Sequence record: PZ862964.1
Length of the DNA stretch: 64,000 bases
Strand: one strand, 5' to 3'
DNA from: a phage
Shown: positions 10,572 to 17,022 of the stretch, in pieces
Position numbering within the stretch: position 1 is the stretch's first letter
Layout of the letters: each line of letters begins with the position of its first letter
The notes under the pieces: model-generated
Told to the model about the DNA's origin: nothing
Seen by the model: the letters and a program-made list of their open reading frames with translations, nothing else
The model's database searches: none
Translations under genes and position numbers: made by a program

Positions 10572-11378
10572 TTATACTCTTGAACCGTATATTGTACCAA
10601 CCTTAGTCCATGTTGGGGCATTTCCGGTAACAGCTTTACCCGCAGCGCCAGCGCCACTAGTTTGAAAGTTTGATGTACGAACAGCAGCGCCACCAGCTGA
10701 GCCAACATTACCACCCGCACCACTCATGTTATTACCATCAACAGTTACTTTACCACCTGCGGCGGTTAACGATGCATTACCACCATTACCTCGACCACCT
10801 CGACCACCAGTACCGAAAGGACGTCCGCCTCCACCACCAGCAACATTACCTAATGTGAAGTTATAATCTACGGACCAACCACCACCGCCACCGCCACCGC
10901 CAGCAATTGCGCCATTATTCGTAATACGTAAGCGTGTACCAATACCATTATTAATCGCTGTACCACCAGCAGTTGCTCGAACTAAAGCATCTCCAGAACC
11001 TCCACTAGATCCAGATCCATTACCTCCTCGGCCATAAACAGTAACGCCAGAGTTAATAATCAATGTCACATATTCATTAGTTAATGAACTAGGAAAATCT
11101 AAGCACGGAATAGTTGAAGAACTAGAAACAATATCTCCTGTTATTGTTACAACAGCAGGAGCTGTTCCAATTGATTTAAGCCAATTAATTAAAGTATCTT
11201 TATTATATGAATGATTTGAGCCAATTGAATAAGCTTTTTCAACTGACTTTCCTGCCATTGAACTCATCCAACCGGGAACTGAAACACGAACTGCTCTCAT
11301 CGCAGCATCCATCCAACGTTGTCCAGTTTCATTCACGGCAGATTCGCCAATCCAGCCAGGAACACCTACAATTGCCAT
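10572..11378 (-). CDS. 38: long tail fibre adhesin gp38 (T2-type, glycine-rich motifs)
   Basis: 268 aa; glycine-rich motifs (GGGGGGGGW, GGGGRPFGTGGRGGRGNGGN) between variable segments; located between gene 37 and t. Confidence 0.8.
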   Translation of the reverse strand: MAIVGVPGWIGESAVNETGQRWMDAAMRAVRVSVPGWMSSMAGKSVEKAYSIGSNHSYNKDTLINWLKSIGTAPAVVTITGDIVSSSSTIPCLDFPSSLTNEYVTLIINSGVTVYGRGGNGSGSSGGSGDALVRATAGGTAINNGIGTRLRITNNGAIAGGGGGGGGWSVDYNFTLGNVAGGGGGRPFGTGGRGGRGNGGNASLTAAGGKVTVDGNNMSGAGGNVGSAGGAAVRTSNFQTSGAGAAGKAVTGNAPTWTKVGTIYGSRV

Positions 11379-11408
11379 TAAAAATCCTTAGAGGGCCGAA
11401 GCCCTCTT

Positions 11409-14400
11409 TTACATAAGTTTAGATTCAAGTTCTTTTACACGAGCAGAAAGTGTTTTCACAGCTTCAACCAGAAGAGCAATCTGGGCTTGAGAAGAAACAG
11501 TGAGTATTTTATTACCCTTACTGTCTTCTGTTTCACGGACAGCTTCTGGTAAAACGTCTTGTAACGTTTGAGCCACAATACCCGCTTCAGTTTCAATTGC
11601 CTCTCCACCGATATATTCAGCTTTATCGTAAATGACACCGTTAAGTTTTTCAACTTTATCAAGTGCATTTTCGATAGGTTTGAAGTTAGATTTTAAACGA
11701 ATATCAGAACGAATATAAACGTTTGGAGCATTTATATTTTTGTATGAGTACAAATCACCGTTTTGGAAACGGAAAGTCTGTACACCATTCGCATATATGT
11801 CTAATAATCCATCGCCATTTTGCTTAATACCAGTGTCATTATCGCCAAACGCTATACTATTTCCACCAAGTGCGTTATTGATGTTAATACCAAATGAATT
11901 CATTTGATTAACACCAGCTACAGTAGCATTATTTACTACAAAGCGATTAGCTCCACCTGGTGTTTTTTCAAAGTAAGCAATATAGTTAGTTTCATCGGCA
12001 ATTTCAATACGGTTACCGCGAGAAGCATCGCCAGCATGAAATATTCTCATATTTCTCGGGTTAGCGCCTGATTTATCAAAGTTAATAGAACCATTATCTT
12101 TGACGTTTATGCTATTATAGAATAAAGCAGCGCTGCGAACAGCTATGCCATTATTCATCATCACTTCGCCGGTTGTTAAGTTAATTGCGAAAGGACGTTT
12201 ACTATTCCAATCGCCATTAACAGTTGCTGCGCCATCGGTGGCATTTTTATCTGTAAACAGAATATAAAAACTACCGCCATCATTTCGTAGCATTGTAGCA
12301 ACAGAACCAGTTTTATCGCTGTTGCTTCTGATACGAATACCGGTTTGGCTATTAATAGCTATTTCAGAATCGGCTTCATAACGCTTAACTTTACCGCGAT
12401 CAACCAAGTTATTAAGAACATTAGCAACTTGACCGTTAACTGCTGTGTCTGGAAGAGCATCTACAGGCGATTGTGTAGATGAGTTAATACCAATAACACT
12501 AACAGTAGCATTTTCGGTACATGACCACTCACAAGCTAATTGATTACAATATGTTCCAGCAGAAACATAAATGTCATATGTATCTCCAGAGACGTTATTA
12601 ACTGCAATATCTTTAAATGCAGCTCCAATTGTTCTTGTGTATAATGCAGCATTTAAGTCAGCAGGTCTTTCATTACTAGTACGTAAAACAATTTCAGCAA
12701 TATTACATTGTGTGAATAATCCGCTATTAAATCCAGAACCTCCAACTATTTTAAAGAAAACTGTCGAAGTGGATTGTGGCATTGTTACTGTTGCAAACTT
12801 ATACCATCCAGAGGTTGCTCCATAAGTAATAAATCCAGAATTAACTTTACGATTTAACGTGGTATTTAAGTTGGCAAAGTTTCCTGAACCATTGGTAATA
12901 TTACCGTCAGTTCCTAGTTGGGCGTTTCTGACTTTAAGAGGCTTAGTAATATCGACAGAATCAGAATTTAATGCAATACCATGTGAATATGTGTAGCTGT
13001 GCATACGAACGACGTTGCCGCCATCGCCAATACCCAAATACCATTTATTCACATCAGCCTTACGTCCTTGAATGAAGTTAGAAGACTCTTGTGTTGGAGC
13101 ATTTATTCTAATAGCATCGCTCGCTGCATTAACTATAATACGTTGACCAGCCGTAGTTCCAGCCACTTCTACTTTAAATCTACCGCCGCCGATATCTACA
13201 TCATGATCCATGGAAACTTTACCAGTACTTAATGTAATATAGAACGGACGTAAATTAGAAATACCACCTGATTCACCAGCATTCTGCGGGGTTGGAATAA
13301 TATAAAGCTTATCTTCAGAACGACGGAAAATTGCACCATATTCAGCATTCCAAATTCTTAATGCATCGGCAGTTCCGCCGATTTTAACTTGTCCAGTAAT
13401 AGAAGAACCACCTTGGACAAACAAACCATTAGACATGGTAACATTACCGACTAAAGTGCTTAATCCATTAACTTTAAAACTTCCGTCAGTAATAATACTT
13501 CCTCTAGCATTAACAGCTCCAGCAAACTGGGTTACAACAGGACCAGTAGTTTCTGAGCCGCTTGGGGCTACGCGTTGGGAATAAAAATAATAACCTTGTC
13601 CGTCAGCTACTTCAAAAACCGTTTCACGATTACGATCGCCAGATGCGTTAAATGAATTACCCCATGCTTTAACAGTTACATAGCTTTTATTCTGCCCAGC
13701 ACGAGTACCGCCTTCCCACAAAATTTGCTTAGTACCATCAATACCTGAAGCTGCTTTAAAAATTAGAGAAGCGTTAGTTCCATCACTATTAAAATATAAT
13801 CCATTATTAAGCTTTAATGTTTGAACAGAAGCGACTGTACCGTCAGCACGCAAACTTAATGTATTTGAAGCAGTTTTAATATCTAAAATTCCTGGTTCAA
13901 CAATAAGTCCTTCGGCCATACTAACGGACATTCTTCCTCTGCCTCTAAAATAATGATAAAATTTACCATTACTATTATAGCCAATATGTGTCTGACTATC
14001 TCCGTTATTATTTTGGTCAACTTCAGTACGAACTGAAAGAAGAGCTGCGTTCTGACCAGGAAGAAGCCACGTACTACCTTGGTCTTCCGAGCGCCCAAAA
14101 ATCGCTTTGCGCGTACTACGGAAACTATCAGGAGTAATAGATGCTAAAGAAAGACCACTAGCAACTAAATCATATACTCCAGTTTTTTTGTATGATAAAC
14201 CTGTTGATGCATCACCGATAACTATATAACATTCGCCCATTGCTCCAGCGGAGCCGTAGTTATTAATGTTTTCATCTGTTGTAATTGTACCAATTGCGAG
14301 TGAGCGTCGTAATACTAAAGCCCCATCATTACGAAGACCCATTTGTTTATTAACGGCTGTATTACCAGTCCACCAAGAAAGTTCATCACTTTTTCCGGTT

Positions 14401-15170
14401 TGCGCAGAAGCGATTTCATGGTAAATGGTTCCGCCTGATTTAGCTCGAACTTTACGAAGGTAATTGATTCCGTTTGTTTCACCGGTTCCAGGATAAACAT
14501 ATTGAACTAATGACTGCGAATCGTATTGTCCGAATGCTTTTGTATCAAAAACTATGGTTTTTGTATTAATCTGTGGAGCAGAAACTATTCCAGTAGCTGA
14601 ATTAATATTACCAGAAGCAGAAATATTACCAGTACGAACTTCAATACTACCAGAGTCTACAATGAAATTGCCGTTTCGATTAAAAGTCCAATATTTTGAA
14701 GTTCCCGATTCGTTGATATAATGAATCTTAAAACTTCCTTCATTTACTAATGTACCAGCTGAAAAAGTTCCATCTTTATAGCGTTGCTTAATGAGTGGAT
14801 GATATTCTGAAACAGAAGTAGTTGAACTTAAATCTGTAAAGATAGGAGCTTTATTTACATGTTGATTTGCCCACGCACCATTACCAGCTGTTTTAGGTAA
14901 AAATTCAATATATTTTCCTGCATAAACAAACTGATTTCCATTGAGATTGTATGTACCGTTCTGTAAATAATCACCAGTTTGAGTAATATTACCACTGATA
15001 TTACCACCAGCAGAAATGCTTAAATCAATGATATTTCCTGAATCATCTTTAGTAAAAATTGTTCTATCTTTTAAGTTTATAGCCAATTCACCTTCGGCTA
15101 ATACTGAAGCAGCAGGACGTGCACCTGCGGTTTTGCTTCTTTTAAATTGTATTTGTTTTAAAGTAGCCAT
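11409..15170 (-). CDS. 37: long tail fibre distal subunit gp37 with C-terminal intramolecular chaperone-like domain
   Basis: 1253-aa ORF in 34-35-36-37-38 order; C-terminal ~98 aa (SDIRLKSNF...GIVAQTLQDVLPEAV...) resemble S74-type self-cleaving chaperone domains. Confidence 0.85.
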   Translation of the reverse strand: MATLKQIQFKRSKTAGARPAASVLAEGELAINLKDRTIFTKDDSGNIIDLSISAGGNISGNITQTGDYLQNGTYNLNGNQFVYAGKYIEFLPKTAGNGAWANQHVNKAPIFTDLSSTTSVSEYHPLIKQRYKDGTFSAGTLVNEGSFKIHYINESGTSKYWTFNRNGNFIVDSGSIEVRTGNISASGNINSATGIVSAPQINTKTIVFDTKAFGQYDSQSLVQYVYPGTGETNGINYLRKVRAKSGGTIYHEIASAQTGKSDELSWWTGNTAVNKQMGLRNDGALVLRRSLAIGTITTDENINNYGSAGAMGECYIVIGDASTGLSYKKTGVYDLVASGLSLASITPDSFRSTRKAIFGRSEDQGSTWLLPGQNAALLSVRTEVDQNNNGDSQTHIGYNSNGKFYHYFRGRGRMSVSMAEGLIVEPGILDIKTASNTLSLRADGTVASVQTLKLNNGLYFNSDGTNASLIFKAASGIDGTKQILWEGGTRAGQNKSYVTVKAWGNSFNASGDRNRETVFEVADGQGYYFYSQRVAPSGSETTGPVVTQFAGAVNARGSIITDGSFKVNGLSTLVGNVTMSNGLFVQGGSSITGQVKIGGTADALRIWNAEYGAIFRRSEDKLYIIPTPQNAGESGGISNLRPFYITLSTGKVSMDHDVDIGGGRFKVEVAGTTAGQRIIVNAASDAIRINAPTQESSNFIQGRKADVNKWYLGIGDGGNVVRMHSYTYSHGIALNSDSVDITKPLKVRNAQLGTDGNITNGSGNFANLNTTLNRKVNSGFITYGATSGWYKFATVTMPQSTSTVFFKIVGGSGFNSGLFTQCNIAEIVLRTSNERPADLNAALYTRTIGAAFKDIAVNNVSGDTYDIYVSAGTYCNQLACEWSCTENATVSVIGINSSTQSPVDALPDTAVNGQVANVLNNLVDRGKVKRYEADSEIAINSQTGIRIRSNSDKTGSVATMLRNDGGSFYILFTDKNATDGAATVNGDWNSKRPFAINLTTGEVMMNNGIAVRSAALFYNSINVKDNGSINFDKSGANPRNMRIFHAGDASRGNRIEIADETNYIAYFEKTPGGANRFVVNNATVAGVNQMNSFGININNALGGNSIAFGDNDTGIKQNGDGLLDIYANGVQTFRFQNGDLYSYKNINAPNVYIRSDIRLKSNFKPIENALDKVEKLNGVIYDKAEYIGGEAIETEAGIVAQTLQDVLPEAVRETEDSKGNKILTVSSQAQIALLVEAVKTLSARVKELESKLM

Positions 15171-15906: not shown

Positions 15907-17022
15907 TTATACTTCTCTAAATTCTTGCCCAAACACTTTACCAGTTTTAGACGATGCTTGCGTAGGAAGTACCATTATATCTGGAGGTGAAGCAGATTCA
16001 CAGATATAATTAACACGAATACCGTTGACGCCAAATTCAGCAGGTTTTGAAATACCGCCGTTTCTTGATACTTCAGAAAAGCTTAAATTTCTCATGCCAC
16101 CTTGACCTGCTTGTGCAGTTCTCTGTGCGTATATCGTAAATCCTACTGCGTTTTCTGGAACAACTACATAATCTTCCTTTAATTCCCATGACCCAGCTTG
16201 TCCGGTAAATTCAGCTTGTGTCGAGGAAATATATCCATTTGATGCATTATAAAAACGGATAGATATATTTGTAGTTCCAAGAGCAAGTAAATCAGCATCA
16301 GCATATAACTGAGCTTTAAGATAAAGAACATCACCAGGAATTAAATTATAATCGGATAATTTACTTATAGCAGCTGAAGTTGGCAATCTCGCAATTTCGT
16401 TATTAGTTCCACCAACCGCTGACATGAATTGCTCAACGCTTTCATACGTTCTTCTTGGAAACCCGGTAGCTCCGACGTCTTCTAAACTGTCAAATACAAC
16501 ATCTAAAATAGTTTGATAATCATCTGTACTTTTTCTATTACTCAGTTTAACATGCTCTAATGCAATAGCTCTTTTAGAAGAAGTGTAAAAAGCAGCATAT
16601 GATACGTCGAATCTTGACAATATAGAATCAGATGGAAAGGCAGACGTTCCGGCGGTTCTTAGCCAAGATACTACTTCAGGAGGAAAATTAACCTTTCCGT
16701 TAGTTAATATAGCAACAATTCGATTATTCGTCAAAGAATTCATGAAACTAACAAAAGCAGCTGATGTAGTATCATTTGAAGTCGAAAAAGCATATGACTT
16801 ACTATCAACTAATGCTCCTGTAGAAGGGTCAAAAACTCTTAAATGAAGGCCTGCGCTAAATGTTTGACTTCCAACAGGATTATCTTGAAATTTAACGTAT
16901 GGTCCTGCCGTAGAAAGCGGGCAAGAACCCGCTATACTTATTTTATATCTTACTGAATTACTTTCCGATAAAAATGGCGTTTGGACATATCCTTGTCCAA
17001 ACTCTGCCATAAATTTTTCCAT
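15907..17022 (-). CDS. 35: long tail fibre hinge gp35
   Basis: 371-aa ORF between genes 34 and 36; size close to recalled T4 gp35. Confidence 0.85.
   Translation of the reverse strand: MEKFMAEFGQGYVQTPFLSESNSVRYKISIAGSCPLSTAGPYVKFQDNPVGSQTFSAGLHLRVFDPSTGALVDSKSYAFSTSNDTTSAAFVSFMNSLTNNRIVAILTNGKVNFPPEVVSWLRTAGTSAFPSDSILSRFDVSYAAFYTSSKRAIALEHVKLSNRKSTDDYQTILDVVFDSLEDVGATGFPRRTYESVEQFMSAVGGTNNEIARLPTSAAISKLSDYNLIPGDVLYLKAQLYADADLLALGTTNISIRFYNASNGYISSTQAEFTGQAGSWELKEDYVVVPENAVGFTIYAQRTAQAGQGGMRNLSFSEVSRNGGISKPAEFGVNGIRVNYICESASPPDIMVLPTQASSKTGKVFGQEFREV

Follow-up and report, generated by a model that had tools for sequence, protein, structure and literature searches.

In a T-even phage with a fiber of the T2 type, the distal tip of the long tail fiber is most likely uncovered by the fiber protein itself. 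We propose, with a probability of roughly 0.93, that gp37 of the phage analyzed here is produced as a 1,253-residue precursor whose C-terminal Peptidase S74 chaperone folds the end of the fiber and then cleaves itself off at the Arg1154-Ser1155 bond, exposing the tip. In the window, that is, the whole 64,000-nucleotide stretch of phage DNA that was analyzed (PZ862964.1), gene 37 encodes the precursor of the distal subunit of the long tail fiber and occupies 11409..15170 on the minus strand, an assignment based on its open reading frame, its Pfam domains and its similarity to T4. The encoded protein, 1,253 aa long with a computed mass of 134.3 kDa, displays three Pfam domains (gp37_trimer, Gp34_trimer and Peptidase_S74) and is 56% identical to T4 gp37 across residues 1 to ~657. 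The source is a T-even phage (Tequatrovirus): the gene order in the window is 34-35-36-37-38-t-asiA, as is typical of T-even phages, and an adjacent 24-kb stretch shows ~97% identity to several Escherichia Tequatrovirus genomes.

The intramolecular chaperone domain at the C terminus (Peptidase S74, or CIMCD) extends from Ser1155 to Met1253 (11412..11708, minus strand; 99 aa, 10.8 kDa) and is predicted to be released once the trimer has folded. The initial annotation had placed it at 11412-11705, and translation of this range on the minus strand indeed gives the exact C-terminal 98 residues of gp37, DIRLKSNF...KELESKLM (in full, DIRLKSNFKPIENALDKVEKLNGVIYDKAEYIGGEAIETEAGIVAQTLQDVLPEAVRETEDSKGNKILTVSSQAQIALLVEAVKTLSARVKELESKLM), but the string that it quoted starts one codon outside the range. 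Since the codon of Ser1155 (11706-11708) lies beyond that boundary, the domain is composed of 99 residues rather than 98. When gp37 was searched with the Pfam Peptidase_S74 HMM (PF13884, "chaperone of endosialidase"), which had been suggested as a check, residues 1155-1212 matched profile positions 1-58 of 58 with an E value of 3.3e-15 and a score of 56.5 bits, the gathering cut-off being 22, and the alignment begins exactly at Ser1155. The domain sits at the extreme C terminus of a fiber protein that also bears gp37_trimer and Gp34_trimer, and its modeled fold matches solved intramolecular chaperone domains, namely those of the K1F endosialidase and of the T5 L-shaped fiber. The likeness to endosialidase and T5 chaperone domains, pointed out in the initial annotation, is thus borne out by the S74 profile, by a conserved Ser-Lys dyad and by the K1F and T5 fold matches.

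Searches of the PDB lead to the same family. The last 163 residues of gp37 match gp37 of Salmonella phage S16 (6F45_A) with an E value of 3.8e-13, in an alignment that sets YIR-SDIRLKS opposite NVS-SDRRIKK. A seven-sequence profile retrieved the tail fiber 8JOV (1e-9), the auto-processing ICA domain of MyRF (7DC3; 6e-9) and, from the neck appendage of Bacillus phage GA-1, the chaperone in its released form (3GUD; 7e-5), the chain of which starts with SDERHK. For the K1F endosialidase and the L-shaped fiber, neither phmmer nor the small profile gave a significant sequence match in the PDB (3GW6, E 1.1; 8HQZ, E 0.17). Matches to influenza hemagglutinin HA2 in the PDB search (E 0.3-0.9) were dismissed as coiled-coil noise. 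By tblastn, the S74 domain occurs in 1703 phage records, T5-like L-shaped fibers included. Used as a word-indexed protein query, the 99-residue domain returned seven proteins, and a 204-residue query returned 524, mostly prophage tail proteins that match the pre-cleavage segment only and have no S74 domain. Because the protein searches yielded so few S74-bearing proteins, the alignment available for structure prediction was shallow (10 sequences).

The start of the domain carries the residues expected of a self-cleaving enzyme. Ser1155 (codon TCT, 11706..11708, minus strand) is the predicted nucleophile, as judged from its conservation in 10 homologues and from comparison with S16, GA-1 and T5, while Lys1160 (11691..11693, minus strand), at the Ser+5 spacing, is the predicted general base; together they form the Ser(i)/Lys(i+5) dyad of SDIRLK. 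Among the 10 homologues, which are 38-86% identical, four positions of the SDxRLK motif (S, D, L and K) never vary, and R hardly does. The spacing is the same as that of Ser1264 and Lys1269 in T5, where Ser1264, activated by Lys1269, cuts the Thr1263-Ser1264 bond, and where an S1264A change abolishes cleavage of the recombinant protein in E. coli (PMC4690869). In T5, an arginine from the neighboring subunit makes cleavage conditional on correct folding of the trimer, the upstream folding-sensor residues contributed by that subunit being Arg1250 and Asp1239 (PMC4690869). Ser1155 aligns with the serine of SDRRIKK in S16 and with the residue that opens the GA-1 domain after release. According to a secondary account of S16, the chaperone domain of that phage is autocleaved after trimerization between the two serines of DLNVS^SDRRIKK, which exposes the docking surface for gp38 (PMC7917993), and in Yersinia fPS phages the predicted cut is DVYIR^SDGRLKI (PMC7917993). 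Because the S16, fPS and T5 sites, as well as the SDERHK start of the GA-1 domain, all place the cut immediately before the serine, we locate the predicted scissile bond of the window sequence, NVYIR-SDIRLKS, between Arg1154 and Ser1155, that is, between window bases 11709 and 11708. The earlier proposal of a cut at about Ser-Asp therefore had the right region of the protein but not the exact bond, which homologues place N-terminal to the serine.

A model of the C-terminal 134 residues as a monomer, whose native state is an obligate trimer, reached a mean pLDDT of 68.7 and falls below 50 over model residues 28-41 (gp37 1147-1160), which span the cleavage site. The model ends in a long α-helix (gp37 ~1227-1252; 11415..11492, minus strand; model positions 108-133) with a pLDDT of 78-89. 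By analogy with the T5 chaperone, which is built around a central trimeric coiled coil (PMC4690869), this helix probably forms a trimeric coiled-coil core. The region coding for the chaperone domain also contains, in another reading frame, a 70-aa ORF (11456..11668, minus strand), which no observation marks as a gene.

The chaperone role, the autoproteolysis, the exact cut site and the docking of gp38 are proposed by analogy with homologues and from the literature, and may be pictured as follows. Three chaperone domains would nucleate and register the distal end of the trimeric fiber and, after correct folding of the trimer, Ser1155 activated by Lys1160 would attack the Arg1154-Ser1155 bond. 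Departure of the chaperone trimer would then expose a new C-terminal tip, ...NAPNVYIR, to which gp38 could bind on a predicted mature gp37 consisting of residues 1-1154 (computed mass, 123.5 kDa). T-even fibers also need the general chaperone gp57A, so folding probably does not depend on the S74 domain alone.

The predicted tip and its putative partner are both encoded as this scheme would have it. The 15 residues with which mature gp37 is predicted to end, LYSYKNINAPNVYIR (11709..11753, minus strand), are the same as in T2 and, by analogy, would form both the new C terminus and the docking surface for gp38; their VYIR motif recurs in the tip strand of fPS phages, DVYIR (PMC7917993). Gene 38 (10572..11378, minus strand) starts 30 nt past the stop codon of gene 37 and encodes a 268-aa glycine-rich adhesin of the T2 type, with Pfam matches to Gp38_N (E 8.5e-18) and GP38 (E 8.4e-67) and a match to 6F45_D (E 3.6e-43). 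An attachment domain and a glycine-rich adhesin domain thus directly follow gene 37, as in T2-type capped fibers. The N-terminal attachment domain (residues 1-42; 11253-11378, minus strand) contains Trp9, Trp22 and Trp37, which align with the conserved N-terminal tryptophans of S16 gp38 that are described as docking on the gp37 tip (PMC7917993). The first 43 residues of gp38 are nearly identical to those of T2 and Kha5h. The claim that the exposed tip binds gp38 accordingly finds support in a T2-type gp38 immediately downstream, with an attachment domain and the three tryptophans that dock in S16.

The 30-nt spacer between the two genes reads TAA-AGAGGGC-TTCG-GCCCTCT-AAGGATTTTTA-ATG and contains a hairpin (window 11390-11407, minus strand) with a perfect 7-bp GC-rich stem and a UUCG tetraloop, adjoining the ribosome-binding site of gene 38. 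This hairpin may be an mRNA-stabilizing or translational-coupling element.

Could the end of gp37 be removed by another enzyme, its S74 likeness reflecting nothing but a folding or trimerization module? Two secondary sources describe T2 gp37 as "proteolytically cleaved" with the protease unnamed (PMC3157838; PMC13030884), and our low-confidence model yields no catalytic geometry, both of which would suit a separate host or phage protease. However, neither Ser1155 nor Lys1160 varies among homologues and they are spaced exactly like the catalytic dyad, the homologous S16 domain is reported to be autocleaved (PMC7917993), and a single Ser-to-Ala change stops processing of recombinant T5 protein in E. 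coli (PMC4690869). Since the dyad is intact and S16 and T5 behave in this way, we consider cleavage by a separate protease unlikely. Less probable again is a degenerate relative of the S74 family that does not cleave and is kept on the mature fiber, capping its C terminus or clamping it as a coiled coil. It is true that cleavage is here deduced from homologues and the literature, and that the Arg preceding the serine is unlike the corresponding residues of S16 and T5, but the catalytic residues are intact and the protein sequence is the same as that of T2, for which processing is reported. A retained domain would moreover block the tip that the N-terminal domain of gp38 needs, and a full gp38 is encoded next door. 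As the tip needed by gp38 would be occupied and the sequence equals that of T2, such retention is unlikely.

As for a chance or compositional match, of the kind that any amphipathic helix or coiled coil might give when it stands at the C terminus of a fiber, the last ~26 residues do form a simple long helix, and the weak PDB matches to hemagglutinin HA2 (E 0.3-0.9) are of the kind that a coiled coil would produce. The Pfam match, in contrast, covers the N-terminal 58 residues of the domain, which are not helical, at an E value of 3.3e-15, and independent sequence and fold matches converge on one family. Taken with the match of the seven-sequence profile to the PDB, they leave chance similarity a negligible prospect, which we regard as excluded. 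We found no data that contradict a self-cleaving chaperone, an explanation that draws on family membership, conservation of the dyad, similarity of fold, absence of the domain from T4, a matching gp38 and identity to T2.

The coding region for the tip and its chaperone belongs to a conserved island (window 11250-11870, minus strand), which comprises gp37 ~1101-1253, the spacer and gp38 1-43, and in which protein identity to T2 and Kha5h is 92-100%. Outside it, the proteins diverge: gp37 is overall 63% identical to that of T2 and 54% to that of Kha5h, and gp38 is ~63% identical to both. This difference between conserved ends and a divergent remainder marks the region as an island in a mosaic locus. 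The island fits the published view that C-terminal subtypes of gp37 are always paired with N-terminal subtypes of gp38, like lock and key (PMC3157838). It is conceivable, though doubtful, that the island goes beyond such a lock-and-key role and is a fixed recombination linker around which fiber shafts and adhesin specificity loops are exchanged independently among T-even phages.

Other parts of the locus bear signs of module reuse. The segment gp37 ~1089-1151 (window 11718-11906, minus strand) shows ~70% identity to tail proteins that number in the hundreds and come from prophages of E. coli and Shigella; in these "phage tail proteins" of ~336 aa, the 63-residue segment is internal (residues 130-192 of P0023) and there is no S74 domain. 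One and the same fiber module is therefore used with and without a self-cleaving end. A 114-aa protein corresponding to window 11412-11753 (minus strand) was also called as a gene of its own on a public 168,860-bp contig labeled Escherichia coli; this call takes the TTG codon of Leu1140 in gp37 as its start and includes nothing but the tip and the chaperone domain. The contig probably represents a phage genome that was deposited under the name of its host, with gene 37 split or miscalled. Nearer the N terminus, gp37 residues 92-189 (window 14604-14897, minus strand) have no counterpart at the equivalent place in T4 gp37 and resemble T4 gp37 683-795 instead (36% identity, E 2e-11), which indicates a fiber module placed differently in the two proteins. 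In the neighboring hinge protein gp35 (window 15907-17022, minus strand), residues 58-127 match the Pfam family ILEI (interleukin-like EMT inducer, PF15711) with an E value of 6.2e-9 and a score of 36.7 bits, which exceeds the threshold of 27.

The S74 family, the C-terminal processing of T2-type gp37, the capping by gp38 and the T2 sequence itself are already known. The feature consequently carries little weight as a discovery, and its value is practical, in annotation and engineering. For annotation, residues 1-1154 are the span to record as mature gp37. When the fiber or the adhesin is expressed or swapped, the 99-residue pro-domain must be retained, together with a matching gp38 N terminus.

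Comparison with known systems sets the window phage apart from T4 and close to T2. T4 gp37 (L001:4543-7620) occupies the same genomic position, but its homology to window gp37 ends near residue 657, and it has no S74 match even at E<=1; Collar and Phage_fiber repeats (needle domains) are found at its end instead. The initial annotation was hence right that T4 gp37 lacks the domain. Conversely, a Pfam search of window gp37 gave no Collar or Phage_fiber match, so that it is not a gp37 of the T4 type. T4 gp38, for its part, is unrelated: it acts as an assembly chaperone and is absent from the fiber. The T5 and K1F domains resemble that of the window only at profile level in sequence (E 0.17-1.1 with the small profile) and are larger, the T5 chaperone having ~133 residues and long β-hairpin tentacles. 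In both systems the exposed mature end is itself receptor-binding or enzymatic, without a separate adhesin cap. The S16 gp37-gp38 complex (PDB 6F45), on the other hand, has the same architecture as that predicted here, with an S74 domain following the gp37 tip and gp38 docked by its N-terminal tryptophans. Its cleavage site S^SDRRIKK (PMC7917993) aligns with R^SDIRLKS of the window, although the tip sequence upstream of the cut differs and the S16 chaperone domain is reported to have 113 residues, compared with 99. Before the serine, window gp37 has Arg, S16 has Ser and T5 has Thr.

T2 is the system nearest to this one, and Kha5h has the same gp37 end. In the last 114 residues of gp37 (15 of the tip and 99 of the domain), T2 (AP018813) and Kha5h are each 100% identical to the window phage, and the nucleotide differences in these 114 codons, five from T2 and two from Kha5h, all fall in third codon positions. 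T2 gp37, which at 1,341 aa is 88 residues longer, has the same S74 match (residues 1243-1300), and the gene order of T2, 34-35-36-37-38-t, is that of the window. For T2 and T6, a secondary source describes C-terminal proteolytic cleavage of gp37 followed by capping with gp38 (PMC3157838, citing Drexler et al. 1986). The specificity region of gp38 is ~50-60% identical to that of T2. Given the divergence of gp37 and gp38 outside the shared end, the window phage is a different mosaic that carries the end cassette of T2.
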